A stretch of 64,000 bases of DNA from Candidatus Binatia bacterium (GCA_029243485.1 JAQWRY010000021.1:118531-182530), one strand, 5' to 3'. Shown: positions 1-64,000, counted from the stretch's first letter. Notes: generated by a model from the letters alone, not told the origin. Program-made: numbers and translations.

Positions 1-27
1 TGATGCCGACCCCGCTCGAACTAGTGC

Positions 28-255
28 TCAGTAGTGGGGCGGCGGCGGTTCCTCGTCGGGATCCGCCGTCGTAGGCGACGGAGTATCGAACCCCTCAGCG
101 AGCCTCTTCACCTCCGCCTGCAGCTCGTCGACCTGATTCTGTTGGCGAATCACGACCGAGTTGAGCTCTTCGATGGTCTGCTCCTGGTGCAGGATCTTGC
201 TCTCGAGGATCTGGAACCGCTCGTCGACCTCGTCGGAGATCGGCTGATCGGACAC
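28..255 (-). CDS. slyX: SlyX family protein
   Basis: ORF 28..336(-). Coiled-coil core ILESKILHQEQTIEELNSVVIRQQNQVDELQAEVKRL and the family-typical C-terminus EEPPPPHY. In-frame GTG at 255 gives 75 aa; the R-rich extension to 336 looks non-coding. TGA stop. Confidence 0.75.
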   Translation of the reverse strand: MSDQPISDEVDERFQILESKILHQEQTIEELNSVVIRQQNQVDELQAEVKRLAEGFDTPSPTTADPDEEPPPPHY

Positions 256-262
256 GCTTCGC

Positions 263-754
263 CTATGCCCCGTCCCCCGGCGTATCGTCGCCGAGGCAGA
301 TGCCTTCCTTCTGAACCTGCTGGAGGAACACTCCACCGATCACGAAACACGGTACGCCGTCGGCCTGTGACACCTGGCTGCGCGTTTTCTCGTCTGAGCA
401 GCTCGCCTGGCAACCCTCGAGGACACCAGCCAACTCTTTTTCCGAACACACTTCGGAGATGAGCTCACACTCGCAGATCGCCGCGCACACCTCCTTGCAA
501 CGCTCGATCTTGCAGACCGTGGAACGAGAACAATCGCGGTCGTCGCAGTCCGACTTGCCATCGGCATCGTCGTCCTTGCCGTCGTCGCAGACCGTCTCTT
601 CGGTCGGCGGCGCCGGCTTCGCCGGCTCGGCGGGCTCCGCCGCCGGAGGCGATGCCTTTTCCGCGGTCGGCTCCGGGCCGGAGCAACCGACCAGCCCCCC
701 GCTGAGGGAGGCGACCAGGAAGACGAGCATTGTGGACGTGACTAAGCGTGGCAT
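263..754 (-). CDS. Cys/Asp-rich secreted lipoprotein with MopE-like metal-binding motif
   Basis: Internal ATG at 754 of ORF 263..1090(-). MPRLVTSTMLVFLVASLSGGLVGCS is a signal peptide plus lipobox. VCDDGKDDDADGKSDCDDRDC resembles CxDGxDxDCDG-type metal/Ca-binding repeats. The upstream 112 codons of the ORF are antisense to the PhzF remnant. Confidence 0.6.
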   Translation of the reverse strand: MPRLVTSTMLVFLVASLSGGLVGCSGPEPTAEKASPPAAEPAEPAKPAPPTEETVCDDGKDDDADGKSDCDDRDCSRSTVCKIERCKEVCAAICECELISEVCSEKELAGVLEGCQASCSDEKTRSQVSQADGVPCFVIGGVFLQQVQKEGICLGDDTPGDGA

Positions 755-877
755 AGGCGGAGATGTCTCAATTCTGGCGCGCCGTGTCCATCCCGGGGCC
801 TCGATCCCGCGCCGGCTACGGACGACCCTGAAAAAGTGTCGGTGGACCGCGGTAATCTGCGGGTCTAGGGCCTTGGG

Positions 878-1311
878 ATGGACTTCCAGATCGTCGACGT
901 CTTCGCCGAACGCCGCCGCTACGCGGGCAACCAGCTCGCGGTCGTGTTGAGCGACGAGCTCCCGGACGAAGCCATGCAGGCAATCGCCGCAGAGATGGGT
1001 TTCTCGGAGACAAGCTTCATCGGCGAGGCGAACACGGAGGGACAGTGGCCCGTCCACATCACATCCACGCCCGCATGTTCGCGCCCACAAACGGCGTCGG
1101 CGAAGACCTCGCGACGGGCAGCACTAATGCCTGCCTCCCGCAGTACATCGGAACGCACTCATTCCTGCCGACTCCCGCGGGGGGCGTGTACCGAGTCGAG
1201 CAGGGGTATGAGGTGGGCCGTCCCTCGCTTCTTAGACTACAACTCGCGCCCAGGTTGGAGATTGGCGGACGGGTCTTCAAGACGGCGCGCGGCGCGCTCA
1301 CGAGGGAATGA
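878..1311 (+). pseudogene. PhzF-family isomerase remnant (N-terminal about 55 aa joined out of frame to C-terminal about 85 aa)
   Basis: Frame of ORF 878: MDFQIVDVFAERRRYAGNQLAVVLSDELPDEAMQAIAAEMGFSETSFIGE...WPVHI is a PhzF N-terminus. Frame of ORF 1045: HIHARMFAPTNGVGEDLATGS...EQGYEVGRPSLL...IGGRVFKTARGAL is a PhzF C-terminus. About 150 aa of the middle are missing and there is a +1 frame change near 1050. Confidence 0.6.
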
Positions 1312-1355
1312 CTCGAGCTCGCTCCTCGAACGATTCGGCGATATGGTTACGCCCC

Positions 1356-2663: not shown

Positions 2664-4313
2664 GTGGCGGCCCCGAGCGGGGTCGCGATGGAGAATTGGC
2701 GCGTTATGATGCCCGGCGTGAGCTCTTCTACGACGCCCAAATCTTCGCTCTTCGATCCCGTGCTGATGCCGCATCTCATCATCAGCGGCCTCGAACGGTA
2801 TGACGATCGCCCCTGCCTCCACCTCGGCGAGACGACAGCCACCTACGCGGAGGTTCGCGCTCGCGCGAGCCAGTATGCGCAGGCCCTCCAGTCCAAAGGG
2901 CTCGGGGTCGGATCCCGCGTCGCGGTGATCTCCGCGAACCGGCCGGAAGTGCTCTACAACATCGCCGCGATGCAGGTGACCGGTTGCTGCGGCACGGCGT
3001 TGCACCCGATGGGCTCGCTCGACGATCACGCCTATGTTCTCGAGGACGCGGAAGTCGAAACTCTCATCTTCGATCCGCGACTCTTTGCGGAACGGGCGGC
3101 CGAGTTGGCCGAGCGGGTGCCGCGACTGAAGAACCTACTCGCGTTCGGCCCCTCCCAAGTCGGGGAAGACTACGCGGCCCTCGCGGACAGCTTCACGCCG
3201 AAGCGACTCGTCGCACCGAACGTCGGCGCCGAGGACGTCGGCTCGATCGCGTTTACCGGTGGGACGACGGGCAGACCGAAGGGCGTGCTCGCGACGTACC
3301 GCGGCGCCGCCGCGATGACGATGGCGCAAATGGCCGAGTGGGAGTGGCCCGAAGACTGCCGGGTGTTGATCCCGACGCCCCTCTCGCACGCCGGAGCCGC
3401 GCTCTTCGTGCCGACGCTGCAACGCGGCGGTGCTCTCTACGTGATGGAAGGCTTCACACCGGACGAGTTCTTCGACACGATCGAGGAGCACAAGATCACG
3501 GCGACTTTCCTCGTACCCGTGATGATTTACTATCTGCTCGATTCCCCACGCGCCGCGACCGCGGACATGTCGAGCATGCAGACGATCTTCTACGGCGCCT
3601 CGCCGATGAGCCCCACCCGCCTGAAGGAGGGACTCGAGAAGTGGGGCCACGTATTCTTCCAGATCTACGGCCAGGCCGAAGCGCCGATGGTCCTCAGCCA
3701 CATGAAGAAGGCCGACCACGACCCCTCCAAGCCGAATCGACTAGCCTCTTGCGGTCGGCCGTCGCCCTGGGTGACGCTCGCCCTACTCGACAACGACAAC
3801 GAGCACGTCGCGGAGGGCGAAGCCGGTGAGATCTGCGTGCGTGGGCCGCTCGTCATGAAGGGCTACCACGGGATGCCCGAAGCCACGGCCGAAGCGTTCG
3901 CAGGCGACTGGCTCCACACCGGAGACGTCGGCCGACTCGACGAAGACGGCTTCCTTCACATCGTCGACCGCAAGAAAGACATGATCGTGAGCGGCGGCTT
4001 CAACGTCTTCCCCAAGGAAGTGGAGGACGTGATATCGGCGCACCCCGATGTCGCGCAGGTCGCGGTCATCGGCGTACCCGACGAGCGCTGGGGCGAGTCC
4101 GTCAAGGCGGTCGTCGTCGTACGACCCGGAGCCGAAGGTTCCGAAGAGCTCGCGGGCGCGCTTATCGCCGCGGTGAAAGACGCGAAAGGCTCCGTGCAGG
4201 CGCCGAAGTCCGTCGACTTCCGCGACTCGATTCCGCTCTCCGCGGTCGGCAAGCCCGACAAGAAGGCGCTGCGAGGCATCTACTGGGGCGACCAGGCGCG
4301 CGGCGTGAACTAG
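2664..4313 (+). CDS. AMP-dependent acyl-CoA synthetase/ligase (FadD-like)
   Basis: 549-aa ORF. AMP-binding motif FTGGTTGRPKGV, then WLHTGDVGRLDEDGFLHIVDRKKDMIVSGGFNVFPKEVE. Start uncertain (GTG 2664 or ATG 2688). TAG stop. Confidence 0.85.
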   Translation: MAAPSGVAMENWRVMMPGVSSSTTPKSSLFDPVLMPHLIISGLERYDDRPCLHLGETTATYAEVRARASQYAQALQSKGLGVGSRVAVISANRPEVLYNIAAMQVTGCCGTALHPMGSLDDHAYVLEDAEVETLIFDPRLFAERAAELAERVPRLKNLLAFGPSQVGEDYAALADSFTPKRLVAPNVGAEDVGSIAFTGGTTGRPKGVLATYRGAAAMTMAQMAEWEWPEDCRVLIPTPLSHAGAALFVPTLQRGGALYVMEGFTPDEFFDTIEEHKITATFLVPVMIYYLLDSPRAATADMSSMQTIFYGASPMSPTRLKEGLEKWGHVFFQIYGQAEAPMVLSHMKKADHDPSKPNRLASCGRPSPWVTLALLDNDNEHVAEGEAGEICVRGPLVMKGYHGMPEATAEAFAGDWLHTGDVGRLDEDGFLHIVDRKKDMIVSGGFNVFPKEVEDVISAHPDVAQVAVIGVPDERWGESVKAVVVVRPGAEGSEELAGALIAAVKDAKGSVQAPKSVDFRDSIPLSAVGKPDKKALRGIYWGDQARGVN

Positions 4314-4319
4314 TACACC

Positions 4320-4344
4320 GTAAGCGACATGGCATGTCGCTTAC
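4320..4344 (+). terminator. 25-nt perfect palindrome, candidate bidirectional terminator hairpin
   Basis: GTAAGCGACATGGCATGTCGCTTAC lies 7 nt after the acyl-CoA synthetase stop. It has an 11-bp stem, is AT-richer than its surroundings and has no U-tract. Confidence 0.35.
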
Positions 4345-4351
4345 GATGCAC

Positions 4352-4560
4352 TAGACCCCGTGTCTCGCGTTGAGGTCGACCGCGCCGAGATACTCGGCGA
4401 TCGCGCGGTCGGACCACGAGCCATCCCCGTTCCACCCTTCGTAGAACCCGCAGCGGCCGCCGTGCCTGCGACATTGATGTTCTCCTTCGCGGTCAGAGGG
4501 AACGCCGCACAGTGGCCCCCAGGTCGTCGCCGGAGGCGATCGGCAGTTTCGGCCGGTGGC
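4352..4560 (-). pseudogene. amidase (GatA-family) remnant with frameshifts
   Basis: Minus-strand translation gives ...WGPLCGVP, then after a frame change LTAKENINVAGTAAAAGS. This matches the amidase G-[IV]-P-x-x-x-K-[DE]-N-I-x-V-A-G-x-x-T-x-x-G-S region. Only about 60 codons remain. Confidence 0.35.
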
Positions 4561-6147
4561 TCAGATCGGCGAGATCGGCCGGACGCGGGGCGGGCTGCGG
4601 TCCGCTCGGCGGCGCGGGCACGAGTCGAACGTCTCGATCAACAGGCGCCGCGTGTCCCGCGGATCGATGACGTCATCGATGCCGAAGCCGCCGGCCGCAC
4701 CCAAGGCGTCGGTCTGACTGCGAATGCGATCGACCATCGCCTGACGCGCCACCTCGGGATCTTCCGCGGCCGCGTACTCCTTCTTGTACGCGACGTCGAC
4801 TGCACCTTCGATCGACATCGCGCAGATCTCGGCCGTCGGCCACGCAAACGCGGCGTCCGCATCGAACGCTCGACCGCCGCCCATCGCGTAATACCCACCG
4901 CCGTATCCTTTGCGAAGAACGACCGAGACGCGAGGCACGGTTGCGATTCCCATCTCGAAGAACAACCGACCACTTCGACGACCGAGGCCGGTGTCTTCTG
5001 CCGCGGAACCGATCGACATGCCAGGAATGTCGATCAGCGACACCAACGGCAATCCGAACGCGTCGCAGAGCCCGACGAAGTGCGCGGCCTTCTCGCAAGC
5101 CGCCGCATCGAGGACGCCGGCCTTATGAAAGGGCTGATTCGCGAGGATGCCGACCGGTCGTCCACCCAGCCGCGCGAAGCAGGTGAGGATGTTCTTCGCG
5201 AAGCCGGGCTTCAACTCGAAGACACTTTCCGCATCCGTGAGGATCGAGACGACCTTCCGCATGTCGTAGACCTTGCGGCCGTTCGCCGGAACGATGTCGA
5301 AGAGCCGGTCGTCGCGACGGTCCGCGGGGTCGTCGCACGCAAGGATCGGTAACGGGTCGCCGGCGTTCTTCGGCAAGTAGGAGAGAAACTTTCGGATCGC
5401 CGCGAAGCACTCTTCCTCGGTGTCGACGGCGAGATCGGCGATGCCCCGTTGGTCCGCTTGCCGTGCGGCGCCACCGAGGTCCTCCTTCGAGATCTCCTCA
5501 CCAATCCCGGCCTTCACCAACGCCGGGCCGGCGATGCCCATCGTGGACTTCCCGCGGATCATCACGACGAAGTCGGCCAACGCCGCGTACGCCGTCGGAC
5601 CGGCGAAGCCCTGCCCCATCACGGCGACGACGTTCGGAACCCAACCCGAGAGTCGGCTCAGGTCATGAAAAACCGGGGACGCCGCGGCGAAATGCGCAGC
5701 GTTCATACCGTCCTGGATGCGATGGCCACCGCCCTCGAGGAGCATGACCATCGGCAGACCGCGATCGGTGGCGCGCGCGATGAGCCGCCCCATCTTCCGG
5801 TCGGCCACCGCGCCGATGCTGCCTCCGTAGACGGTGAAGTCTTGCGCGAGCACACACGCCTCGCGCCCATCCAGCATACCCGTGCCTGCAATGGCCCCGT
5901 CCGCCGGTGCGATGAGATCGCGATTGAGCTCGTTGCTGCGATCGGGTTGGACGAGGGCACCGACCTCGCGAAAAGTACCCTCATCGACAAGGGCGCCCAG
6001 CCGCTCGCGCGCGGTCGCCAACTCCTGCGTGCGCCGTTTCGCGACGGCCTCGGGGCGCGCGTCATCCATCAACGCCGCTCTCGTGTCTTCGACCTTCTGC
6101 CGCAGGTCCTGAGGCGACGGCCCCGGGGCGCTTCGTTCCTTGTTCAA
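4561..6147 (-). CDS. acyl-CoA carboxylase carboxyltransferase (beta) subunit, PccB/AccD5-like
   Basis: 528-aa ORF with TTG start and full-length carboxyl-transferase architecture: ...RERLGALVDEGTFREVGALV..., MVMLLEGGGHRIQDG, FAWPTAEICAMSIEGAVDV. Confidence 0.85.
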   Translation of the reverse strand: MNKERSAPGPSPQDLRQKVEDTRAALMDDARPEAVAKRRTQELATARERLGALVDEGTFREVGALVQPDRSNELNRDLIAPADGAIAGTGMLDGREACVLAQDFTVYGGSIGAVADRKMGRLIARATDRGLPMVMLLEGGGHRIQDGMNAAHFAAASPVFHDLSRLSGWVPNVVAVMGQGFAGPTAYAALADFVVMIRGKSTMGIAGPALVKAGIGEEISKEDLGGAARQADQRGIADLAVDTEEECFAAIRKFLSYLPKNAGDPLPILACDDPADRRDDRLFDIVPANGRKVYDMRKVVSILTDAESVFELKPGFAKNILTCFARLGGRPVGILANQPFHKAGVLDAAACEKAAHFVGLCDAFGLPLVSLIDIPGMSIGSAAEDTGLGRRSGRLFFEMGIATVPRVSVVLRKGYGGGYYAMGGGRAFDADAAFAWPTAEICAMSIEGAVDVAYKKEYAAAEDPEVARQAMVDRIRSQTDALGAAGGFGIDDVIDPRDTRRLLIETFDSCPRRRADRSPPRVRPISPI

Positions 6148-7847: not shown

Positions 7848-8738
7848 TTACGGCTTACAAACCATCTTCCCGGTCGTGTGCACCCGGCAGTTCGTGTTCT
7901 CCGCGGTGATGTTCACGTTTTCCTTCATCGTGTAGAAACGAAGCGGCGCCTGGACCGGTCCCGTGAAGCCCTTGTTCTTGAGGCGGATCTTGAAGAGGTA
8001 GTCGTCGGGGTTCCGGCTTGAGGGTCCAGATCGTTCCCTTCTTCACGAAGGCCGGCACTTCGATCAGGTCGCATACGTCGCCCTCACCGTCGCCGTCGTA
8101 ATCTTCCTGACCCGGGTTCGGCGTGAGCGGGCAGTTGTCGTCGGCGTCGGGGATACCATCCAGATCGGTGTCGACGATCGGCGTCTGCGACGTCACCATG
8201 ACGGTCGCGAGGTGGCCGAGCGTGCTCAAGTCGTCCGTGCTGGTGCCGTATAAGAACCCGGCGTAGTGGATCGGCCCGCCGCCATCGTTCGCGTCGAGGC
8301 GCCCCAGGAGAAGGCCCGCGCCGGCCTGAACGGCTATCGGCTCGTCGCGCCGGACGGTGATGCGGCCGCGCATCACGTGATCGACGCTGATCTGGTACCC
8401 CTCGTTCAGGGGATCATCGACCGGAACTCCATCTCGTACCCGACGTTGTGCCGGTAGATCAGAGCGAAGTTGGGCGCCCCCGGCTGGACGACCCGCATGT
8501 CCTGGAAAAACGCGAAATGGTTCGAGAACTCCGTGACGGCGCCTGCCGTGACCGGGGCCATGGTGGCAAGGACGGCCGAGCTTTACTGCCGAAGGATCCC
8601 GTTGCCCGTGTTCTGAGTGACATCGGGATCGCTGAAGTTCGTGACCGACACATTCGTGACCGACAGGGCGACCGAGAGAGACGGAACGGCCAGCACGGCG
8701 AGCACCAGAGCGGAGCGGACTGCGGCTCGAGTGGTCAT
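7848..8738 (-). pseudogene. secreted thrombospondin-type-3 (Ca-binding) repeat protein, disrupted
   Basis: ATG 8738 gives signal peptide [25 protein letters not shown]. In-frame TAA at 8583..8585. Frame change near 8430 into ...[14 protein letters not shown]...[35 protein letters not shown]. Second frame change near 8015 into [52 protein letters not shown], with stop at 7848. Confidence 0.5.
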
Positions 8739-8866
8739 ATCGGATTCCCCCTCGGCCGCGTTCGCCGTACGTCATGGATCAGGAGTATCGCAAGTCCGAT
8801 TCCAGTACCCCCACAGAAGGAAAATCTAATAAAATCAGAGCCCTAGGGCACCCGAGGAGCTATCCC

Positions 8867-11323: not shown

Positions 11324-11691
11324 GAGTCAGATTAATGGCTGATCCCTTGCTGGAATGTAAGCGACAGGAAGCCGCGACGCGGCCGACGCTGAAAAACTCA
11401 CGCCCGTGGCCTGCGCAACTTCGACCGGCGCTCGATGATCATCACGACGGGCCGCGGTACGATTCTCGATGCCCCACACCTGCCGCTCACCGCGCCAACC
11501 GGCGTCACGGTCCAACTCCACGATGTCGCGTCGGGGAATTGCTGGGGCGGCTACTTCCCTGAGACGGCGATCGAACGAAACCAGTCCGGAGGTCTTCCGA
11601 GCCACCCCAAGGGGGCCGGGTGCAGTCGTTCCAGCGCTGCGATAGGCTCGGCGGATGAAGGAGGCCGCCCGGATCAACGAAGCCCCGCTCC

Positions 11692-13361: not shown

Positions 13362-13607
13362 AAGTGGAAGGACGCATTCCATCCGAACAGCATTGAATTC
13401 GTCTCGACCCGCCAGCGGGACTCGAGGACTCCGACCTCCTGATCAGCCTGCGCAATCTCGACCGGATCGCTCTCATCGACAGCAAGCGCGGGAAGGTGCT
13501 GTGGAGTTGGGGAGGGCAGCCTGTTCTGGACAGGCAACGTCCTGATCACCGAGAGCGCCAAGGGTCGTGTGTTCGAAGTCACGCCCGCCTGCCGGATGAC
13601 ACCGTAG
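13362..13607 (+). pseudogene. arylsulfotransferase (ASST)-like beta-propeller remnant
   Basis: Three frames of the spacer give KWKDAFHPNSIEFVSTR / DSDLLISLRNLDRIALIDSKRGKVLWSWGG / WTGNVLITESAKGRVFEVTPA. This matches the H-x-N-S-I ... L-I-S-x-R ... I-D-x-x-x-G-K-V-x-W pattern of ASST-family proteins. Confidence 0.35.
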
Positions 13608-13630: not shown

Positions 13631-15916
13631 GTGTCCCGACCCGCCCTCAACCCGACGACCCGCACCGTCCGGTTCGTCGGTGCGGTACTGGTATTCGCCG
13701 TCGCGGTGACTGTCTCGACGATCGCGCTCGACCCCGCGCGGATCCTGCTCAGCCCCGACGTGATCGAGCACGTCTCAATCGCCAACGCCCTGTCGCTCGG
13801 ACATGGCTTCGTGAACCCGGTCCAGTGGTACTACTCGCTGCCGGGGCCGCCTCCACTTCCTGCGGCGGCATCGCGCGCCCCTGTGCTCCCCCTGCTCCTC
13901 GCCGGGGCGTTCAGCGCCGGAGCCGACCTTCGCGAAACGGTGTACGCGCATATTCTCTTCTCGGCTCTGGTCGCCGTCGGGATGTTTCTGCTCACATGTC
14001 GCTTTGCGAGACCCGTTCTGGCCGCCGCGGCTACGATCCTCGTGGTGACGTCTCCGATCTGGGCGATGGTGAGCACCAGCCTGCTCTCGGAAGTCACAGG
14101 GCTCGCAGCCTGTCTTCTGATCGTCGCGACGGCGGCCGGCGCCGGCCGCGCTCGAAGCGGCGCGATCGTCTGTGCGCTCGCGACGGTGCTCGCGTGGCTC
14201 ACCCGTCCGAACCTCGCGCCCATTGCCTTGGCCGTCGCCGTGGCAATCGCCTGGGACGTCCGGCGACCCAGGGCGCTGCTTCGGTCTCCGGTCGCGCTCT
14301 ACGTTCTCGCGGTCGTCGCCGGAACGGCCGTCGTGTCCTGGTTCTCGACGATCATGACCGGCCTTCCGCCGTATGACGGATACCGTCACGTCTTCGAACA
14401 CTTCCCGGAGGCGCGCGCCTACCGCTACGGGACCGAGTACGTCGGCACCTTCACCTTCATCCAAGCGCACTTCGACAAGGTCGTGGAGGCCTGTCTCTCC
14501 CACGCCAGCCAGCTGTCGTCGGAATTCTTCACGTCGAGCCGGTATCGCTTCGCCGGCTGGTGGCTCCTCGCCGGCGTTCTCTGCGTTGCGCGCTCGCCGT
14601 CGCGCGCCACGGTCGAGGAGCGCGTCCTCGCTTTGTCTGGACTCGGCTTCAGCCTGATGATCGTGCTCACGTATCCGGCCTTCGACCACCTGCGATACCC
14701 GCTGTTTCCGGCCATCTTCGGAATTCTGGTTGGAATCGGCGCGGTCGAAAGAACACTGCAATGGGTGGAAGCGCGGCGGCCCACGTTCCGCTGGGCGAAT
14801 TTCGAGCGCCCCTTATGGGCCGGCCTGATCGTACTCTCCGCGGGACTCACATGGACGATCGCCGCGGGATCGCGAAGCATCGCCGCCGCGCCCGAAACGA
14901 TGAGCCTGGATTGCTCGGTCCTCGCCCCCGGTGAGCTCGTCATGACCGACGAGCCGTGGAGCGTTCACTGGATGTGTGGCAACCCGGTGATCCGCGTTCC
15001 GGCCGACCTAATGCTCGATGGGATACGGGATCAGTTCCTCGGTGACTTCGACCCCCAGTACTTCATCGCGTATCGAAAACTCTGGGGACAACGCGCGATG
15101 CGCGATCCCGAGATGCGACTCATCCCCACGGCCGGTCCGGAAAAGGTCTTCGAGATCGCTCGCGAGTCACCCCCCGCAACACGAGGACCGATCATCCACC
15201 CGCCGGCGTGTCGTCTCGACCCCTCCCCTGCGCCCTGTACGGATCTCGCTGCAGCACCGCCGGCGACATCCCCCAACGTCGTACTCGTCGTGATCGACGC
15301 TCTTCGGCGCGATCACCTCGGCATGTTCGGCGACACGCGCCCCACGAGTCCCAATCTCGACGCGCTCGCGCGTGAGGGTGTTTTGTTCACGAACCTCTCG
15401 AGCGTCTCTGCCCAGACGGCCCCCGCAGTCTCCAGCCTCTTCACCGGCCGGTACCCATCGGAGAGCGGCGTCCAGCTCTACGCGCGCGACCTGTCCTTCG
15501 GAAACGGACGAAAGCGGCCCGTGCTGGACGACTCACTCACGGTCCTTGCCGAATCGATGCCCGACGCGGGATACGCGACCGCCGCGGTCGTATCGAACCC
15601 ATAGCTCTCTCCAGAGAACGGGTTCGCTCAGGGGTTCGACGAGTTCATCGAAATCGAATGCGGTGGACTGCGGCCGAAGAAGAAGCCCCCGTGCCAGGCC
15701 GACCAGGTCTTCGATGCCGCGTGGCCCTTCCTCGAGAAAGGCAAGCAGCCCTTCTTCCTCTACCTCCACCTGATGGACGTCCATAGTCCGTACATCAAGC
15801 CGGGAATCACCACTCGAATGTTCGTCACGGAGAAGGGGCGCGACCGCTACCAGAACGGACCCGCGGCGGAGCTGAGCGACGTCGATCGCGAATTCATGAT
15901 CGCCCTCTACGACGAA
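13631..15916 (+). pseudogene. GT-C-like membrane protein fused to an LtaS/EptA-type alkaline-phosphatase-superfamily ('sulfatase') domain; in-frame TAG and 3' truncation
   Basis: The N-terminal 500 aa are paralogous to 11692..13338. Then PNVVLVVIDALRRDHLG...SAQTAPAVSSLFTGRYP (Thr-type nucleophile motif). TAG at 15602..15604 sits inside VVSNP*LSPENGFAQGFDEF. The same frame continues ...QPFFLYLHLMDVHSPY...ALYDE, and the domain then ends abruptly. Confidence 0.6.
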
Positions 15917-16024
15917 CTGACGGGGTCGTTCCTCCTTCTTTCCCGACCCGGCGCGATCGGCGCAGCCCGCATCGGCGAGCGACGTTGCTGGCATACGGCG
16001 CGTCGATCTGAGAGAGAGCCCCCC

Positions 16025-17020
16025 ATGCATGTCGGATTTGGAACGGTCTTTCAGAGCCAACCCGGAGTCGAGGACCACGTCGTCTACCAGAGAGAGATTG
16101 CGGACGCCGTCCGCGCCGAAGCGCTCGGCTTCGATTCGGCGTGGTGCACGGAACACCACTTCGGCGATTACATGCTGAGTCCGGACCCGTTCCAGTGGCT
16201 CTCGTTCATGGCCGCGGCAACGACGAAGCTCGATCTCGGCACGATGGTCTCGGTCCTCCCGTGGCACGACCCGATGTGGGTGACCGAAAAAATCGCAATG
16301 CTGGACGCGATCTCCGGCGGGCGGGTCATTCTCGGCGTAGGGCGGGGAACCGCTCCGAAGGAGTACGGGCTCTACGGCGTCGACGTCGAGACCAGTCGTG
16401 CGCGCTTTGCCGAGTCCGCAAAGATGGTGATCAACGGACTCGAACAGGGCTACTGCGAGTTCGATGGGACCTACATCCAACAGAAACGGGCCGACATTCG
16501 CCCGCGACCGTTCAAGTCGTTCCGAGGTCGAACGTACGCGTCGGCCGTTTCACCTGAGTCGTTCCCCCTCTGTGCCGAGCTCGACGTGGGCCTCCTCTTT
16601 ATTCCGCAGAAACCGCTCGAGCAGCATCAAATCGATCACGAAGCGTATCGCGAGCACTTTCTTCGGCTCCACCAGCGCGAGCCAATCCCGGCGATCTACG
16701 TCGGCTGGGTCGTGTGTGACGAGAACGAGAACCGCGCCCGCGAGCTCGCCTACGAACACATCGGCCGGTACTGGGACAGCGCCGTCCAGCACTACGGGAT
16801 GCAGGTACCCGAATCGATGACCGAGGTCTTCGTGAACGCGCACCCGTGGGGGACCCCCGAGCAGGTAGCCGAGAAGATCGCCGCGACGTGTCGGCAGCTC
16901 CGCGCCGACCGCTTCGTGGGCGTGTTCAACATGGTGGGCATGGAGCCCGAGTTCGCGCGGGCCAATCTCGAGCTGTTCTCGGAACGAGCTCTTCCCCTCC
17001 TCGAGCAGGAGCAGCTTTGA
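16025..17020 (+). CDS. LLM-class (luciferase-like) flavin-dependent oxidoreductase
   Basis: ATG 16025 inside ORF 15773..17020. MHVGFGTVFQ...ALGFDSAWCTEHHFGDYMLSPDPFQWLSFMAAATTKLDLGTMVSVLPWHDP...GGRVILGVGRG. Confidence 0.85.
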   Translation: MHVGFGTVFQSQPGVEDHVVYQREIADAVRAEALGFDSAWCTEHHFGDYMLSPDPFQWLSFMAAATTKLDLGTMVSVLPWHDPMWVTEKIAMLDAISGGRVILGVGRGTAPKEYGLYGVDVETSRARFAESAKMVINGLEQGYCEFDGTYIQQKRADIRPRPFKSFRGRTYASAVSPESFPLCAELDVGLLFIPQKPLEQHQIDHEAYREHFLRLHQREPIPAIYVGWVVCDENENRARELAYEHIGRYWDSAVQHYGMQVPESMTEVFVNAHPWGTPEQVAEKIAATCRQLRADRFVGVFNMVGMEPEFARANLELFSERALPLLEQEQL

Positions 17021-38637: not shown

Positions 38638-39105
38638 GCCATCGCTACTCATGCAGCGTTCGAGAAGAGCAACGTCGCCGTAGTGAACGGCACGGCCGAC
38701 GGGATTGGCCTGGCGGCATGCAAACGATTCGCCGAGCTCGGCATCAAGGTCTGCATGACCGACATCAACGAGGAAAAACTCCAGAGCCCTGCGGAAGCCA
38801 AGATCCTGCCCGTGGTGGGGGGTAGCGCTGCGAACCTCCTGCGGGCCCTCGTCGACGTCTCCGACCGCGCGCAGCTCGAGGCGCTCTGCACACAGGTGTA
38901 CGACCGCTTCGGACAGGTCGTCGATCTCATGTTCGAGCGGATCGCGGCGGAACGATTTTACATCCTATGCCCGGACAACGACGTGACCGCGGAGGTCGAC
39001 AACAAGCGAATACAGTGGGGGATCGACGACCTCATCGAGGATAGGCCTGCGCTTTCCCGCTGGCATCCGAAATGGAAGGACACGTTCGAGCGGTTCATGT
39101 CGTGA
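38638..39105 (+). pseudogene. short-chain dehydrogenase remnant (in-frame internal deletion, no usable start)
   Basis: The frame is open from 38638: AAFEKSNVAVVNGTADGIGLAACKRFAELGIKVCMTDINEEKL...VDVSDRAQLEALCTQVYDRFGQVVDLMF. It then jumps to a C-terminal tail, ERIAAERFYILCPDN.... The catalytic S-Y-K region is missing. The nearby ATG (38651) is out of frame. Confidence 0.5.
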
Positions 39106-42853: not shown

Positions 42854-43247
42854 CCCCCTGCCTCTCTTAGCACCGCTGTGGCAGCGGCGAACCGGCACCC
42901 TGATCGAAAACGGTGCTACCCACCAGCGAGCGAGTTCACGATCGTAACCACGTCGCCAGCATCGAGCGGACGATCCAGCGCCGCGCGACCGCGGGCGCCA
43001 TCCTCGTTCAGGAAACAAAGAACGTGGCGGAGCGCGGCGCCAGGCAGCCGAGGAACGTGCTGCCGAGCATCTCGGTACCGGAGAGATCGACGATGAGACG
43101 AGCGTCCGGGCCCTTATCCATCAGACGACAGACCACCCGCTTGAACGCCGGACTCTCGCCCACTCGTCGCTTCCTAGACTATCGGGGGGACTTCAACGTC
43201 GCTTGAAAGCCTACGCAGTGCTCCATCGAGGTCATCTCGGGGCGGCC

Positions 43248-43451
43248 TTAGATCGTCGGAATATGCATGCGCATGATGCCGGCGTCACGGATCTCCTGAA
43301 CGACCTCCGCGGGGAGCTGCCGCAGTCGATCGTACTCCGAAGCGAGGTCCTTCTCGCGGCCCCCCAAGACGAGTGCGCGCGCGTTCCGCAGGATGTCGCT
43401 CGCCGAGAGATACGACCCCGCTCGCGGCTTCATTTCGTTCGACGCGCTCAT
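43248..43451 (-). pseudogene. acyl-CoA dehydrogenase-family N-terminal remnant ending in an in-frame TAA
   Basis: MSASNEM...ASDILRNARALVLGGREKDLASEYDRLRQLPAEVVQEIRDAGIMRMHIPTI*GRPEMTSMEHCVGF... Homology continues a few codons past the TAA (43248..43250) and then stops. Confidence 0.4.
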
Positions 43452-46163: not shown

Positions 46164-46919
46164 TCAGATCGGTCGGACCGGCGAAGCCGGATCGTAGAAC
46201 GAGTAGAGCTTCACGAGCTCCGCGATCTGCCGCTTCGACGCGTTCAGCGTCTCGGCGTTCACGTTGAATATCTGTCCGGCCATCTCGGCTGCGTGTTCCA
46301 ACGCGAAGACGTAACCGGCGGCGCAATCCTCGACGTGCAAGAACGTTCGGCGAGAGTCCCCCGCAAACAGAACGACAGTGCCTTCCTGGACCGCCTTCTG
46401 CACGAAGTCGTGGATCAGAAGTCCAGTCCGCATCCGCGGACTCACGCCGAAGATGGTCGGCCAGCGCAACGAGATCGACTGCTCGTGCGAAAGGAAGACC
46501 TGCTCGGCCTGGAGCTTCGCCACGCCGTAGTGACTGACCGGACAGACCTCCGTCTCCTCGCTGCTCACACCACCGCCCGCGCCATACAGGGACGTGGTCG
46601 ACGCATACACGAGCAACTGCTCCTTCGAGAGGGCGCGGCAGATCTCGCGCGTCGCGGTCACGTTGATGCTGTCAGTGACGTACGTACCTCGATTCCAGAA
46701 TGCGTTCGCGAGTAGGTTGAAGGCGTTGTTCGCCCACTTCCCCCAACGCAGGAACTCGGCGCCCTCTTCGTTGACCGCGGTCTCCATCATCCGAGAGGCG
46801 ATGACCATCGCCGTGTCGGTGATGTACGTGCGTTCGTCGACGTCGCGGAAGACCGGGGTGAAAATCGAAACGGCACCCATCGGGAGACCCAAGTTACCGA
46901 ACCCACGCAGGATCCGCAC
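46164..46919 (-). CDS. NAD-dependent epimerase/dehydratase-family (extended SDR) protein
   Basis: YASTTSLYG...SHYGVAKLQAE (YxxxK), RRTFLHVEDCA. The N-terminal glycine motif is degenerate (ILRGFGNLG). I place the start at in-frame GTG 46919; the ORF extends to 46991. Confidence 0.6.
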   Translation of the reverse strand: MRILRGFGNLGLPMGAVSIFTPVFRDVDERTYITDTAMVIASRMMETAVNEEGAEFLRWGKWANNAFNLLANAFWNRGTYVTDSINVTATREICRALSKEQLLVYASTTSLYGAGGGVSSEETEVCPVSHYGVAKLQAEQVFLSHEQSISLRWPTIFGVSPRMRTGLLIHDFVQKAVQEGTVVLFAGDSRRTFLHVEDCAAGYVFALEHAAEMAGQIFNVNAETLNASKRQIAELVKLYSFYDPASPVRPI

Positions 46920-46978
46920 GAGGCGGCACCCGGCTCTACCCCCTTGAAGACCTCGGGCCGAATTCGCATCATCCACCC

Positions 46979-48046
46979 ATGCCACCGACACAAGCGCCCC
47001 CGTCCAGCGACGAAATACCGGAGATCGACGTCACGCCGCTTTTCGGCGACCGTGGGTCCGCCCGAGACGAGATCGACCGCAAGATCTGCGAAGCGGCGTC
47101 CCGCGTCGGATTCATGACGATTGCCGGAGCGCCGCTCGGCGACGACGCCGGCAGGCAGGCGCGAGACTCACTGCTGCGGCTCTTCCGGCTCCCCGAAGGC
47201 GAGCGGCGAAAGCTCTGGAAGAAGAATTTCGCCCCGGAGAACCCGAACCTCTATCGCGGCTGGTTTCCACTTGAGTCTGCCGAGCCGCGGAGCCGGGAGG
47301 GCTTCGAGATCGGGCCGGACGTGGTTCGGGAGCTTCCGGACTCGGACGACGATCTTCTCTTCGAGCCCTCCGTGTTTCCGCCAGAGGAACAGATTCCGGG
47401 TTGGCGGCGGGACGCCGTTGCGTACTACCGAGCGATGGAGTCGATCGGCTACGCCCTCCTCGCGTCGATCTCACGCGGGATCGGCATTTCGGAGGACATC
47501 TTCCGCGGCGCGTTCGACGACGGAATCTCGACGCTGCGCCTTCTGCGCTACCCCGGCCGCCCAGCGGGCGAACCTCTCGCGCCCGAGCTCGAGAAATACT
47601 TCATGAGGTGGGCAGGCGAGCGCGTCGAAGTCGTTTGCGGTGGCCATGTGGACTCGGGGCTCGTGACGATTCTCGCCCAATGCGACGCGGCCGGCCTCCA
47701 GGCCCGAACCGACGACGGTCACTGGATCGACGTACCCCCGACCGAGAACGGGCTCATCATCAACTTTGGTGGTCTACTGGCTCGCTGGACCGGCGGTCGT
47801 GTGCGCGCGACGATGCACCGCGTGTTGTCCTCGGGCACGGAGCGCTTCTCGATTCCGTTCTTCTTCGAGCCTCGTCCGAACACGGTGATTGCGCCGCTCC
47901 CACTCGATGGGATCGAACCCTTCGCGCCATTCCAGTTCGGGGATTACCTCTGGGCGACCACGACGAAGTTCCCCGAAAACCACGGTTTGGGCCATCTGAG
48001 GCCGGCCCGCGCGCCGTACCGCGACCCGTTCGAGAAGCAGAGCTGA
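46979..48046 (+). CDS. 2-oxoglutarate/Fe(II)-dependent oxygenase (isopenicillin-N-synthase-like)
   Basis: 355 aa. EIPEIDVTPLF..., GFMTIAG, ...GGHVDSGLVTILAQ... (His/Asp facial triad region), RATMHRVLSSGTERFSIPFFFEP. Confidence 0.8.
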   Translation: MPPTQAPPSSDEIPEIDVTPLFGDRGSARDEIDRKICEAASRVGFMTIAGAPLGDDAGRQARDSLLRLFRLPEGERRKLWKKNFAPENPNLYRGWFPLESAEPRSREGFEIGPDVVRELPDSDDDLLFEPSVFPPEEQIPGWRRDAVAYYRAMESIGYALLASISRGIGISEDIFRGAFDDGISTLRLLRYPGRPAGEPLAPELEKYFMRWAGERVEVVCGGHVDSGLVTILAQCDAAGLQARTDDGHWIDVPPTENGLIINFGGLLARWTGGRVRATMHRVLSSGTERFSIPFFFEPRPNTVIAPLPLDGIEPFAPFQFGDYLWATTTKFPENHGLGHLRPARAPYRDPFEKQS

Positions 48047-49812: not shown

Positions 49813-50559
49813 ATGGGCCGGAGCACGCGCAGCCCGATGCAGAGACGTAGCCTAGACCGCATCCTGAACTCCCAGGGGTTCGGCACCCGACGGGAATGCC
49901 GAGCGCTCGTACGCCGCGGGCTCGTGACGGCCGACGGCCGACCCGCGAGGGACGATGCAGCGGAGTACGAGATGGAAGATCTCGAGATCGCCGTAGAGGG
50001 CGTGATGACCTGGCGCTGTCGCGAGCGGCTCAACCTCGCCCTGCACAAGCCGCAGGGCTACGAGTGCTCTCGCAGCCCGTCGCACCATCCAAGTATCCTC
50101 AGCCTCCTTCCCGCACCGTTCGTCACTCGCGGGGTTCAGCCCATCGGCCGACTCGATTAGAACACTTCCGGGCTGCTCCTGCTGTCCGACGACGGTGGCT
50201 TCAACCACACCATCTCCTCTCCGAAGCGACACATCCCTAAGACCTACGTCGCGACGACGCGCGCACCGGCAACCGCCGACCTCGCAGCCGCGCTACGCGA
50301 CGGCGTGCTTCTCCGTGGCGAGACCGAGCCGAACGCGGCGCTCGACTGCGCGGTCGTCGGAACCCACCGGCTCGAGCTTCGGATTGATCAAGGCAAGTAC
50401 CATCAGGTGAAGAGGATGCTGGCGGCCGCGGGAGCGGAGTGTGTGGCGCTCGAACGAACTGCGATCGGGAACCTCACACTCGCCGCGCTTGGGCTCGAGT
50501 CCGCGCAGTGGTGCGTACTCGGCGCCGCCGAAATCCGGCTTCTGGCCCCGGAGGTCTGA
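49813..50559 (+). pseudogene. rsuA: RsuA-family pseudouridine synthase with one in-frame TAG in the catalytic GRLD motif
   Basis: S4 domain LDRILNSQGFGTRRECRALVRRGLVT...LHKPQGYECS...IGRLD*NTSGLLLLSDDGGFNHTISSPKRHIPKTYVA...GKYHQVKRMLAAAG. ORFs 49813..50160 and 50305..50559 share one frame. TAG at 50158..50160. No other lesion seen. Confidence 0.7.
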
Positions 50560-51328
50560 TTCAACCCTCGAGCGCCGGGCGAGTCTCTTCCGGCGCCGTG
50601 CCGGCTACCGGCGGGTACCAAATCGGCACCGTCGCCAATGCTCGGCGCCTCGCCCAGTCCCTCTTGACGGTCCACCCCCAAGCGCAGGCTCTCGTCGACG
50701 GGCAAGAAGCGACCGGCGACCAGATCCTCGTGGCCGGCCGACGCACTCCATCTGGGCTTCCTCGCGAACTTCGATTGGTGACCGAACCGACACGGGCTCG
50801 ATTGGTTTGCTCGCCAGATGCTCCCGAAATTCGCGTTGATGGTGCAGCCGCCGCCCAGGCAACAGTGAGAGGAACGTTACACCCGGGCCGGAGAGCTTTC
50901 GATGCGCAGCAAACAGACGAGCAACGGCACGCCAGAGCAGCCCCCGCAGGTCCCACCGCGACGAAGGAATCAATCGCGCCACCCCGCAGCCACCACGGGC
51001 TCGCTCGGAGTACACAGAGCCCTGTAATGAAGAACACATCTCAGATGTTCAAGACGACCGTCATCGGCAGCCAGCTCTTCCTCATTCCTCTCGCCGTGGT
51101 CATCGTCGTCGTCGGCAAGGTCGTCGTGGTGATGAGGACGGCCAAGGGCAATGCCGAAGTCTACCGCCCCGGGACGATCACAAGCCCGCGTTCGTGGTCG
51201 AGGACGGGAGCTACGCCTCGGCCCGCTGGCCGGGGGACAGCTATCTCTTTGCGCAGAGGTATGTGGAACTGCTGGAGCGAGCGCTCAGAGCCGCGCCAGC
51301 GAACACACCGGGCGTCTAGCGCGGCGCG

Positions 51329-52564: not shown

Positions 52565-53107
52565 CCATTCATCTCTACCATCCCGCGCCGAAGAGAATCA
52601 CCTTCGATTCTGCCGACCGGCCTTTTCAGCCCAGAAATCGTCCGGTCGACCCGGGGCCGGCTTGCCACGGAGGGGTCGGGCCGGCCGATGTGCCGGGAGG
52701 GAGTGCTCCGAGGAGCACTCTCTAGCCTGCCAACGGTCAGAAATCGCAGACCTCGATCTCACAACTCAGAGGATTGCAGTCCTCCCCGAGCGGGTCGCAC
52801 GCTCACTCCTGCGGGCACGTCCTCGGAGCCTCGCAGGTGTACGGCGAAAACTAGGATGTAGACACATGACTTCCTCCCATGGGGGCTCGGCGGGCGACAG
52901 GACGACCGCGGGTTGTAGATCCGCGGTGAACTGCACAAGCGCGATGCCAGGGAGGTGAGGAGAGAAAATTCCTACGCTATTCGACGAATCGCGCGCCGCG
53001 CCGCTAAGTCGGATTGGCGTCGAGCTGTGGCCGTCGGAAAGTTTACTTGTCGCACCTTTATGCGATGTGGGGCCGTGCGAATGTATCCGCGGACGGCGCC
53101 TACCGCA

Positions 53108-58979: not shown

Positions 58980-59398
58980 TCAACGAGCGGCGCGGCACTC
59001 GCCTCGACCGATCTCTTCTCGGACAGCGAGACCGTACAGCCCAGGATTGAGAGCCTCCCCACTCCGGACCCGCCGCACTCGGCTGTCCATGGCGCGCTGG
59101 CTCGGGAGCACCCAGCGCCCCGGCAAGAGAGCCTCCGCGATCGGCCAGAACGCGCCGGTCGGCCGACTCACTCCAATGATGAAGAGGTCGCGGCGCCGGC
59201 TTCGGCGATCTCGCACGCCAACTCGCAGCCCGTGTTGCCCGTACCGACGACGACTCGTTTGCCGCGCACCGAGGTCGGACGATCCGGCGCGCGGCAGGAC
59301 TGCACATGCATCACTTCGCCGTCGAAGTTGCCGGGAAAATCCGGAAGGCGGCGCAGGACCGGTTGACCGACGGGGGGTACTCGACCGCGAGACATCAC
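58980..59398 (-). pseudogene. flavin-containing monooxygenase remnant (frameshifted, internally deleted)
   Basis: ORF 59168..59398: LPDFPGNFDGEVMHVQSCR...GKRVVVGTGNTGCELACEIAEAG (second dinucleotide motif). After a frame change: DLFIIGVSRPTGAFWPIAEALLPGRWVLPSQRAM (FMO C-terminal region). Confidence 0.45.
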
Positions 59399-61556: not shown

Positions 61557-61994
61557 CTAGGCGGTGGGCGGGAAGGCGAGGTCGAGGCCGACGCGGGCCA
61601 GGCCGACCAGACGCAGAGCCCTGGCATCTTCGGGCGACCACCACGCGCACTGATCGGTCGTTCCCTGGCCCTCGTTGGTCAGCGTCCCGCCGAGGAGTTC
61701 TGCGAAGTAGATGATGCGAATGCCCTGATGGGAGGCGTCCTCGCGGTCCAGATGGACGGAGTCGACCGCCGCAAGGCTCTTCGGCCGCACGTGAAGTCCC
61801 GTCTCCTCCCGAACTTCGCGCACCATCGCGTCCGCGGGATCTTCGCCGAAATCTATGCCGCCGCCCGGCAGCGTCCAGCGACCCTGGTGCCGAGGGATCT
61901 CCGCCGAAATCCGACACAAGATCATCCGGGGCTCGTCCAGGATCAGACCGTACGCGGCGATCCGAGTGATCTGCGGCTTGTCCCCATGCGCCAT
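61557..61994 (-). CDS. NUDIX hydrolase
   Basis: ATG 61994 inside ORF 61557..62048. Nudix box GGGIDFGEDPADAMVREVREETGL. Confidence 0.8.
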   Translation of the reverse strand: MAHGDKPQITRIAAYGLILDEPRMILCRISAEIPRHQGRWTLPGGGIDFGEDPADAMVREVREETGLHVRPKSLAAVDSVHLDREDASHQGIRIIYFAELLGGTLTNEGQGTTDQCAWWSPEDARALRLVGLARVGLDLAFPPTA

Positions 61995-62074
61995 CCTACG
62001 AGCGTACCACGCAGTCCTGCAGTGGCAGGGCGACGACTCGACGGCCACGAGCCAACGCAGTAGAACTGCCGGTC

Positions 62075-62932
62075 ATGTCCGCTCAGCTCGGAAGCAAGCC
62101 CACCTGCCGGATCCGATCGATCTGGCGATTCCCGATCAAGTCGTTTCAGGGAGAGTCGGTCAATTCCGCGCTCCTTCAACCGCAGGGCATCTTCGCCGAT
62201 CGTCCGCTCGCGCTTCTCGACAAGGGCACCGGCAAGATCCTGAGCGGCAAGAACCATGGACTCGGCGAACAGATCCTGACGTTCGAAGCCCGCTACGAGG
62301 CGGACCCGGTTCCGGGCAAACCCCTACCCGATGTCGTAGCGCAGGTTGCCGGGAAGGAGTGCAGAACGAGCGACGCCCGCGCGTTTGCGTCGGCCTGCTC
62401 CGAAGCTCTCGGGACGGAGGTCGAACTCGTGACGGCAGGCGGCGCACCGGCCGTCTACGACACGTACTGGCCCGAGGTCGAAGGGCTCGTGCTCTCGGAC
62501 CAGACGATCGAGTTCCCTCTCGCTCAGGCCGAAGCCGGATCGTTCGCAGATCTAGAGCCACTCCACCTGCTCACGACCGCCAGCATGAAACACCTCGCCG
62601 GCTTGGCCGCGAACAGCGCGATCGACACCGCACGTTTCCGCCCGAGCATCGTTCTCGACACGGGCGATGAGGACGGTTTCCTCGAGAACGACTGGAGTGG
62701 CTGCATCGCAAGCCTTGGGAGCGCTAGGGTCGAGTTCGGCGCCGTAGCTCCTCGGTGCATCATGACCACGCGTCCACAGGCGGGATTCCCCCGTGACCTC
62801 GAGGTCCTGCGCACCCTCGCCCGGGAGAACCGCCAGGAGTTCATGGGAATGCAGATGCCCTGTCTCGGGGTCTACGCGAAGGTCCTCCAGCCGGGATCGG
62901 TCTCCGTGGGAGATGAGCTGACGTTCAGCTGA
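62075..62932 (+). CDS. MOSC-domain protein (with N-terminal beta-barrel)
   Basis: IWRFPIKSFQGES..., ...RFRPSIVLDTG..., APRCIMTT conserved Cys region; 285 aa. Confidence 0.8.
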   Translation: MSAQLGSKPTCRIRSIWRFPIKSFQGESVNSALLQPQGIFADRPLALLDKGTGKILSGKNHGLGEQILTFEARYEADPVPGKPLPDVVAQVAGKECRTSDARAFASACSEALGTEVELVTAGGAPAVYDTYWPEVEGLVLSDQTIEFPLAQAEAGSFADLEPLHLLTTASMKHLAGLAANSAIDTARFRPSIVLDTGDEDGFLENDWSGCIASLGSARVEFGAVAPRCIMTTRPQAGFPRDLEVLRTLARENRQEFMGMQMPCLGVYAKVLQPGSVSVGDELTFS

Positions 62933-63740
62933 TCGCGTCCCGGTCCGCAAAGACCTTCCGCGCGAGGCGGAAGCCTTCGATCGCGCGCGGAAACCCGCAG
63001 TAGGGCACCATCGTCACCATCACCTCCTCGACCTCCTTGCGGGTGACCCCGTGGTTGAGAGCACCGCCGATGTGGATCTCGAGTTCGCGCGTCATGTTGG
63101 TCGCCGCCAGAGCGGAGATCACGACGACGCTCCGGTCGCGGCGTGACAATTGCGGCCGTGCCCATATCTCGCCGAACGCAAAGTCCACGACGAGGTTTCC
63201 CATGTCACCCAATTGCTCGACCGTCGCCGCAGCCACCGCGCTCATGTCGACGCCCTCGGGCATCCCGAGCAACGTCTGAAGAACGTCGAGACCATCCAAG
63301 CGGCGTTGCGTGTTCTCCTTCGGCTCGGCGGGCGGCGGTGGCGCCGCGCGGTGTTCGGTGCCATCGAATCCGGCGAAGACCTGCGCGACGATCTCCGCAC
63401 CGCCGAAGGCAAAGGGCATTCCGACGTACGCTCCGAGTTGCACCATGATCTCGTCGACTTCGTCGCGCGTGAGGCCATGATTAAGACCACCGGCCACGTG
63501 TTGGCGAAGCTCGACCTCGCGACCGAGCGCCGTCAGTGCTGAAATGACGACGAGACTCCGATCTCGACGGGAGAACTGCGACCGACTCCAGACCTCGCCT
63601 GCCGCAGTGTGTAGAGCGATACTTCCGAGAGCGCCCTGGGTGTCGAAGAAGCCCGCCAATGCGCGGCCGCCATCTTCGGAGCCGCTCAGAGTCGAAAGGA
63701 CGTCCAGCCCGCGTTGTCGCCGCGTGTCGTGATCGGTCAT
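62925..63740 (-). CDS. tandem carboxymuconolactone-decarboxylase (AhpD-like) domain protein
   Basis: Two CMD repeats, each with ...W(S/A)RxQ(F/L)SRRDRS(L/V)VVISAL...E(L/I)xxH(V/I)xG(G/A)LNHG(L/V)TR.EV.E. Overlaps the 3' end of the MOSC gene by 8 nt (convergent). Confidence 0.8.
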   Translation of the reverse strand: MTDHDTRRQRGLDVLSTLSGSEDGGRALAGFFDTQGALGSIALHTAAGEVWSRSQFSRRDRSLVVISALTALGREVELRQHVAGGLNHGLTRDEVDEIMVQLGAYVGMPFAFGGAEIVAQVFAGFDGTEHRAAPPPPAEPKENTQRRLDGLDVLQTLLGMPEGVDMSAVAAATVEQLGDMGNLVVDFAFGEIWARPQLSRRDRSVVVISALAATNMTRELEIHIGGALNHGVTRKEVEEVMVTMVPYCGFPRAIEGFRLARKVFADRDAIS

Positions 63741-63759
63741 CGGATTTCCCTTGGATCAG

Positions 63760-64000
63760 CTAGCGCGCGTTCTCGTTCCAGTCGTCGAGCAGCAATTGCA
63801 TCGTCACGTTCAAAATCACGTTCTGCTCTTCGTCCACGAGGTCGTAGAGAAGTCCGGCGGCACTGTGGCCACCGAAGAAGGCCATCCCGCCTTCGTCGCC
63901 GCCGCGTTCCAGGTGTGGGAGCGTATCGTCCCCGGTCAGAGCGTAGTCGCCGGCGCGGCGAACCTTGTGCGCGCCCCGGGTCCCATCCGGATTGAGGTCC
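63760..64000 (-). CDS. partial CDS (C-terminal 79 codons), unknown function
   Basis: Open minus-strand frame running off the window: ...AGDYALTGDDTLPHLERGGDEGGMAFFGGHSAAGLLYDLVDEEQNVILNVTMQLLLDDWNENAR, stop TAG at 63760..63762. GC3-rich codons. Family not recognised. Confidence 0.35.
   Translation of the reverse strand, partial: DLNPDGTRGAHKVRRAGDYALTGDDTLPHLERGGDEGGMAFFGGHSAAGLLYDLVDEEQNVILNVTMQLLLDDWNENAR

Follow-up and report, generated by a model that had tools for sequence, protein, structure and literature searches.

A stretch of 64,000 nucleotides, one strand of DNA from a Candidatus Binatia bacterium, was analyzed here as a single window, to which all figures for gene loss refer, and its spacers were found to contain an unusually dense set of broken genes. 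These fragments are probably true pseudogenes and gene remnants, caught at different points of their decay and left by a lineage that inactivates dispensable or redundant genes faster than deletion clears the debris. The stages range from an rsuA that is perfectly conserved except for one fresh CAG>TAG change through to scraps of <80 amino acids (aa), a spread that speaks for inactivation still under way and against a single old event. For the 64 kb covered, the data are best explained by ongoing loss of genes as selection is relaxed.

Density of gene relics in the window

Genes were called with a codon log-odds model trained on long open reading frames (ORFs) and were then annotated with Pfam. 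Of the called genes, 43 appear intact, among them two AMP-binding ligases, a carboxyltransferase, a TonB-dependent receptor, HrpB, an LtaS-type sulfatase, a methyltransferase/desaturase pair, TruA, and an OEP/AcrB/MFP efflux operon. Several neighbors are tightly coupled, and the ATGA/TTGA overlaps given in a preliminary description of this DNA (at 17017, 23960, 54706, and 60489) are all real 4-bp start/stop overlaps. Intact coding sequence makes up 78.9% of the window and strong relics another 11.4%. The intact share lies below the ~88-92% coding density of free-living bacteria, as is usual for reductive genomes, and below the ~92% covered by called genes in the compact relative L082. The G+C content is uniform along the window (63-69%), and the unexplained remainder, at 64.7%, equals the coding DNA (65.0%), which is the value to be expected if it once was coding.

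The claimed relics were examined by Pfam hmmscan on the reading frames of the preliminary description, on ORFs, and on all spacers translated in six frames. Between the intact genes lie 15 gaps of 200 bp or longer; nine of them contain a relic (eight well supported and one probable), three hold a weak scrap, and three hold none. The earlier statement that relics fill almost every spacer longer than ~200 bp is therefore somewhat overstated. The well-supported group comprises PhzF, a TSP3 protein, an LtaS-type sulfatase, an arylsulfatase, a histidine-kinase ATPase, an SDR, RsuA, and Ysc84/SYLF, and the probable relic is a 5'-truncated epimerase. Among the 13 fragments named previously, six were strongly confirmed by Pfam, four are weak (arylsulfotransferase, FMO, acyl-CoA dehydrogenase (ACAD)/STAS, and amidase), and three are unsupported (amidohydrolase N-terminus, DUF502, and beta-grasp). 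Set against the 43 intact genes, the nine strong relics (eight plus the probable one) and the four weak ones amount to 17-23% of gene-like features in the window, above the 10% that marks reductive genomes.

The density is indeed unusual, as had been proposed. The six-frame Pfam scan of the window spacers (9.9 kb) returned seven families at E<=0.05, whereas the same scan of 8.8 kb of control spacers yielded no relics. These controls came from seven related or high-GC loci totaling 147 kb, namely L081, L082, and five Myxococcota/Planctomycetota loci around truA. Their sole match was a complete, uninterrupted CheY gene overlooked by the crude gene caller. The chance of all seven family matches landing in the window is ~2e-4 for an equal rate per kb of sequence and ~0.01 per kb of spacer. 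Two other measures were set aside. A local blastx that compared spacers with every ORF of the retrieved loci was discarded because the truA loci are mutually syntenic and the matches were small, real, uncalled genes, and the non-coding fraction from the crude caller was not used since it varied from 4% to 28% across loci as small genes were missed.

Broken genes and their lesions

The freshest lesion lies in rsuA, which encodes the 16S rRNA pseudouridine-516 synthase (49837-50559, + strand) and was absent from the preliminary description. A single in-frame TAG (50158-50160) sits directly after the catalytic GRLD motif, with the S4 and PseudoU_synth_2 domains on both sides of it in one frame, and the relic keeps every invariant residue of the family. 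At the TAG column, the eight closest homologues have Gln (GRLDQD) and two more distant ones have His, so that an in-frame TAG is not conserved among RsuA orthologues. From this alignment the lesion is read as a fresh CAG>TAG nonsense mutation. In the relative L085, rsuA is intact in the same truA-rsuA arrangement, which indicates that the lesion is lineage-specific and recent.

Two further broken genes had likewise escaped the earlier listing. The Ysc84/SYLF gene (1783-2553, - strand) is interrupted by an in-frame TAG at 1987-1989 (VVFLF*TRARF); one alignment stretch to the Pfam Ysc84 profile (E 2.4e-7) spans the stop, the coding log-odds are good on either side of it, and the relic ends at profile position 94 of 127. 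The NAD-dependent epimerase (46164-46991, - strand) matches profile positions 88-239 of 240 only, even with the ORF extended to the upstream stop. Its N-terminal Rossmann part is absent, no GxxGxxG motif occurs in the translation, and it is probably a 5'-truncated relic.

Two sulfatase genes are broken by both stops and deletions. In the LtaS-type relic (13631-15820, + strand), the ORF 13631-15604 encodes a 547-aa N-terminal region followed by Sulfatase profile positions 1-97 at residues 548-653, and it closes with a TAG at 15602-15604. Beyond this stop the profile continues (positions 113-184 at 15605-15810), which bears out the broken LtaS-type domain previously placed at 15605-15916. An intact LtaS-type paralogue (20440-22515) lies 5 kb from the broken copy, and blastp aligns the two across the TAG over residues 287-450 of 691 (E 6e-20). 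Because the match ends at residue 450, approximately the last 240 codons are gone. What is left is joined in frame to the region upstream of an intact luciferase-like monooxygenase, whose domain starts at 16025. A metagenome scan for intact LtaS-type orthologues returned just one 30% identical domain match.

The arylsulfatase relic (32507-33205, + strand) consists of a signal peptide and two blocks (32645-32896 and 32969-33193), with a TAG at 32690. The fragment was recognized by the Pfam SGSH_C profile (positions 70-150, E 1e-11) and by tblastn of an intact 406-aa sulfatase (P0242), of which residues 91-158 and 332-403 alone match. The catalytic N-terminus and ~170 central residues are missing, and the rest lies in a single frame. 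Outside the window but apparently on the same contig, another truncated sulfatase C-terminus of 173 aa was noted (P0241, MDG2304451.1), the last 84 residues of which are 86% identical to the relic at 32951-33202. Its NCBI annotation reads 'MAG: DUF4976 domain-containing protein, partial [Candidatus Binatia bacterium]'.

The SDR relic (38638-39105, + strand) shows an in-frame internal deletion of ~120 residues and retains an open 140-aa ORF (38683-39105). The adh_short profile is matched at positions 1-80 only (E 5e-11), and a search of 1.84 billion representative proteins aligned the relic with homologues of 275-290 aa in two stretches, ~4-95 and ~217-285, in agreement with the broken SDR described before. 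The best non-self match is a full-length protein of 287 aa at 46% identity. The deletion takes out the catalytic Ser/YxxxK region, with a junction near 38914 (FGQV|VDLMFERI). At that point full-length homologues carry a pair of short motifs that resemble each other (FGQVDLLM and EQVVDFM), which suggests a deletion between brief stretches of similar sequence.

Internal deletion recurs within this SDR subfamily. At least five other short forms of 134-151 aa (P0245, P0246, P0249, P0257, and P0258; also L086 at 4218-4631) occur on unrelated metagenome contigs, all with the catalytic middle absent. The preliminary description had reasoned that the same short forms in relatives would speak for real mini-genes. 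Here the breakpoints differ in each form, which identifies them as independent deletions and not as a conserved mini-gene family, and no homologue was found with the breakpoints of the window's SDR, nor a shared architecture for a 'mini' SDR family. The 140-aa relic itself (P0243) is held as a protein in public sources (NCBI, ENA, and NCBI nr), on two contigs.

The remaining well-supported relics agree with the earlier assignments. For PhzF, previously placed at 878-1311, the relic spans 878-1308 (+ strand), with an N-terminal piece (878-1060) and a C-terminal piece (1075-1308) in different frames. In the earlier frames, they match the Pfam PhzC-PhzF profile at positions 1-47 (E 1e-9) and 204-259 (E 2e-7), and the six-frame scan gives a combined E of 2e-18 over two stretches (1-47 and 196-259), with ~148 profile positions deleted between the pieces. 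The TSP3 secreted-protein relic (7855-8775, - strand) carries a signal peptide (8661-8738) and a TSP_3 repeat (8068-8172; Pfam E 7e-7, and 6e-5 in the six-frame scan) in different frames, together with several stops. The histidine kinase, proposed for 36198-36624, is recognizable solely by its C-terminal ATPase domain (36204-36434, - strand; HATPase_c positions 25-109 of 111, E 1e-8, and 4e-9 in the six-frame scan), with a stop upstream. In the older relics (TSP3, kinase, arylsulfotransferase, FMO, and ACAD), several frames, stops, or mere scraps are left. The relics thus display the mix of large deletions, frameshifts, and nonsense codons that had been reported for them.

Four of the five large deletions kept the frame: that of the SDR (38896-38943), two in the arylsulfatase (32645-33193), and the sulfatase-monooxygenase fusion (15605-17020), with PhzF alone out of frame. 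Under a 1-in-3 expectation, such a result has a probability of ~0.045, and the excess may be due to ascertainment or to deletions that joined in-frame microhomologies.

Proposed gene decay and its alternatives

Since these relics are genuine and differ widely in age, genes appear to be inactivated continually and cleared slowly. The lesions comprise point nonsense mutations, such as the CAG to TAG change in rsuA, large deletions within genes or at their ends, of which several are in frame, and further frameshifts with erosion to scraps of <80 aa. At least one deletion, that of the SDR, presumably took place between short similar sequences. Insertion sequence (IS) elements take no part within the window. 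The genes hit include paralogues of sulfatases, SDRs, kinases, and flavoenzymes as well as single-copy non-essential genes such as rsuA. Purifying selection may have been relaxed in this Candidatus Binatia lineage, for instance because the effective population is small or the lifestyle host-associated, and the decay may well reach beyond the window.

Several observations weigh against this interpretation. The pseudogene fraction covers 64 kb only, synteny is confined to just two gene pairs, and an intact orthologue in the same slot is lacking for most relics. L081 has large empty gaps yet no recognizable relics. Single-base stops could be consensus errors, and several remnants are open, codon-typical ORFs that could be expressed. 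IS expansion, usual in early reductive evolution, is not seen in the window. Finally, a free-living lifestyle is only an assumption for this organism. Of the earlier proposal of ongoing reduction or relaxed selection, what stands is the set of real remnants with mixed lesions at different stages of decay, rather than its extension to the whole genome.

Among 185,579 species-representative genomes, the nearest TruA proteins belong to Nannocystaceae and other Myxococcota/Desulfobacterota metagenome-assembled genomes (MAGs), at 58% identity only. A source of the Mycobacterium ulcerans/leprae type, considered on account of the G+C content and gene families, was rejected in view of this TruA match and of the TonB-dependent receptor and AcrAB/OEP efflux genes in the window. 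Closer relatives are available as fragments: L085, with TruA at 86% and RsuA at 75% identity, and L081 (GCA_029262355.1), with a FAD-oxidoreductase (P0001 in the window) at 84% and an aminotransferase at 83%. Synteny at this level (75-86% aa identity) is restricted to the truA-rsuA and FAD-oxidoreductase/aminotransferase pairs, and the flanks all differ. An intact orthologue in the same slot was found for rsuA in L085; the flanks of the other relics are not syntenic in L081, L082, or L085, and no genome closer than these three was found. A tblastx search of the window against L081 and L082 was swamped by high-GC noise and was replaced by tblastn with defined proteins.

This confined synteny, with its differing flanks, would also fit a local turnover hot-spot, in which paralogues are gained, duplicated, and deleted in an accessory, high-flux region that leaves fragments at its boundaries, while the genome is otherwise ordinary and selection is not relaxed across the lineage. 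Most relics do derive from large paralogous families (sulfatases, SDR, kinase, FMO, and ACAD), and the intact LtaS-type paralogue lies close to the broken one. However, the single-copy, housekeeping-type rsuA and Ysc84/SYLF are also hit, and by fresh point mutations rather than rearrangement. The relics lie scattered over all 64 kb, interspersed with conserved genes (truA, hrpB, and acrAB-type efflux), instead of forming an island, and the composition is uniform. Neither tRNA genes nor an integrase bounding the relics occur in the window, no transposase domain was detected by Pfam scans in any of its ORFs or spacers, and it contains no IS element and no repeats of at least 30 nt beyond chance pairs. 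We consider a hot-spot unlikely but not negligible. Artefacts of assembly or consensus, such as base-calling or strain-mixture errors and mis-joins, are much less plausible still. The source is probably a MAG, and rsuA and Ysc84 are each broken by a single base, but most lesions removed 100-240 codons and left non-homologous junctions, which an assembler would not produce, and the older relics carry many independent lesions in diverged sequence. Moreover, the short SDR ORF is recorded from two contigs (NCBI and ENA), and the intact neighbors show no excess of frameshifts and have near full-length Pfam coverage.

A different question is whether some relics function, either as mini-proteins translated from short in-frame forms (the 140-aa SDR and a 145-aa sulfatase C-terminus) or through readthrough of TAG in RsuA, Ysc84, and the sulfatase. 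Codon usage in the short ORFs is still that of genes (0.21 log-odds per codon), the frame is preserved in most of the large deletions, and short forms of the SDR subfamily recur in metagenomes. On the other hand, the SDR has lost its catalytic Ser/Tyr/Lys region and the sulfatase its catalytic N-terminus, and the SDR breakpoints are shared with no other form. All four clean in-frame stops within well-conserved coding sequence are TAG (1987-1989 on the - strand; 15602-15604, 32690-32692, and 50158-50160 on the + strand), with well-conserved sequence downstream, and the only TGA, at 13394, falls in the weak arylsulfotransferase scrap. From codon usage, however, TAG is the commonest expected product of single-base nonsense mutation (56-61%), and four out of four by chance has a probability of 0.10-0.14. 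Nor is TAG avoided as a terminator: it ends 17 of 41 confident ORFs, or 15 of 39 (~40%) when the internal TAGs of Ysc84 and LtaS are excluded, and is a true terminator at two operon junctions (52190 and 57763). Given, in addition, Gln rather than a stop at the rsuA position in relatives, we regard function of these relics as very improbable. That the four TAGs are partly decoded, by a suppressor tRNA or by ambiguous decoding that would leave at least RsuA and Ysc84 at full length in the lineage, is hardly credible in view of the stop-codon usage and the codon-based expectation. TAA ends just three confident genes, and the TAG share is high for a bacterium.

Gene decay under relaxed selection, the preferred reading, can be set beside known systems. 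Early-stage reductive genomes with a high pseudogene load include those of Mycobacterium leprae and Sodalis glossinidius. The Symbiopectobacterium/Sodalis endosymbionts of mealybugs are also in early-stage reduction with a high pseudogene load (PMC13345370). The window resembles such genomes in its broken genes between intact, tightly packed ones (intact coding 79%), in its lesions of all ages (nonsense, frameshift, deletion, and unrecognizable spacer), and in the ongoing loss of a dispensable housekeeping gene, rsuA. It differs from them in the absence of IS elements and in a G+C content still at 65%, the relics showing no drift towards AT. Whereas classic reductive cases reach a load of 40-50%, the window shows ~17-23% of gene-like features in a 64-kb sample. 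In free-living bacteria, background pseudogenes make up roughly 1-5% of genes. The lesions here are of the same kinds and affect mostly redundant paralogues, but their density is several-fold higher, with none from the 147 kb of control loci.

Among symbionts of marine invertebrates, pseudogenes are reportedly carried by the verrucomicrobial sponge symbiont that produces lasonolide and by Ca. Endolissoclinum faulkneri. Sulfatases, TSP3 repeats, and the arylsulfotransferase in the window recall sponge-associated bacteria. Like those symbionts, the present organism is uncultured and known from metagenome bins, with pseudogenes and a reduced coding density. Unlike them, the window lacks biosynthetic gene clusters and other symbiosis factors, and nothing in it places the MAG in a host.

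Our literature searches returned no report of pseudogene accumulation or reductive evolution in Binatota, an uncultured phylum with a G+C content of 53-73% and a sponge-associated order, Bin18 (PMC8262859). The observations are best read as a known kind of phenomenon, relaxed selection and early reductive evolution, in a lineage for which no earlier report was found. If the density holds genome-wide, it would reveal ongoing gene decay in Binatota without IS expansion or G+C loss and would point to a recent lifestyle shift, for example towards host association, which is plausible because part of the phylum is sponge-linked. Since remnants are stored as proteins (the SDR P0243 and the sulfatase P0241), metabolic reconstructions from such MAGs can over-count functions.

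Weak fragments and further spacers

The four weak fragments retain traces of the families named for them. The arylsulfotransferase scrap (13424-13516, + strand), within the 13362-13607 proposed earlier, has its in-frame TGA just upstream and matches Pfam Arylsulfotran_2 at positions 153-185 (E 1e-4), with 22 bits against a cutoff of 27 bits. For the FMO, proposed at 58980-59398, the scrap at 59171-59338 (- strand) holds the second Rossmann motif, GKRVVVGTGNTG, and matches the Pfam FMO-like profile at positions 158-205 (E 1.2e-3) and Pyr_redox_2 (E 2.2e-3). In the spacer assigned to a trio of fragments (42916-43451), the ACAD/STAS scraps lie at 43041-43343 (- strand). The ACAD N-terminus (43251-43343) gave a PDB phmmer E of 0.03, with ACADs accounting for 11 of the 16 matches listed, aligned N-terminally at residues ~23-80, and the STAS-like scrap (43041-43103) matched Pfam DUF4325 (E 0.046). 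The six-frame Pfam scan returned zero matches for this spacer, and its beta-grasp piece found no support. The amidase-like motif FPLTAKENINVAGTAAAAGS (4440-4502, - strand; previously 4352-4560) is suggestive only. It has one 38-aa match, 32% identical and at the right position (residues 59-96 of an intact amidase from L082), at an E of 0.034 in a tiny search space, and neither a Pfam nor a PDB match.

Two other proposals could not be substantiated. The amidohydrolase-like N-terminal motif MHDLVIRGGTVVDGT (27344-27403, + strand; proposed as 27344-27451) spans ~20 aa and matched no family at E<=0.1 as a peptide or at E<=0.05 in the six-frame scan of the spacer. The DUF502-like start (51045-51131, + strand; proposed from 51037 onward) matched no family, either as a peptide or across the spacer 50560-51328, and no stop-free stretch with a coding signal was present.

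That spacer is one of three (with 52565-53107 and 11324-11691; 370-770 bp) with a G+C content as high as that of genes and with no protein-family match, stop-free coding-signal stretch, or Rfam match. An Rfam scan of the whole window returned zero RNA families, so none explains the empty spacers. Derivation of the spacer 50560-51328 from the patatin gene located after rsuA in L085 was also considered, and no similarity was found.

Gaps are also present in the relatives. Two gaps of 1.1-1.3 kb in L081 (1800-3081 and 6239-7362) have no called gene and no Pfam-recognizable relic, and could represent older decay or unknown genes. With nothing similar in the window, two spacers of L082 (615-825 and 5680-5850) consist of tandem GC-rich repeats with the recurring translation SHRRRRCERRRDF, which look like a REP-like intergenic family.

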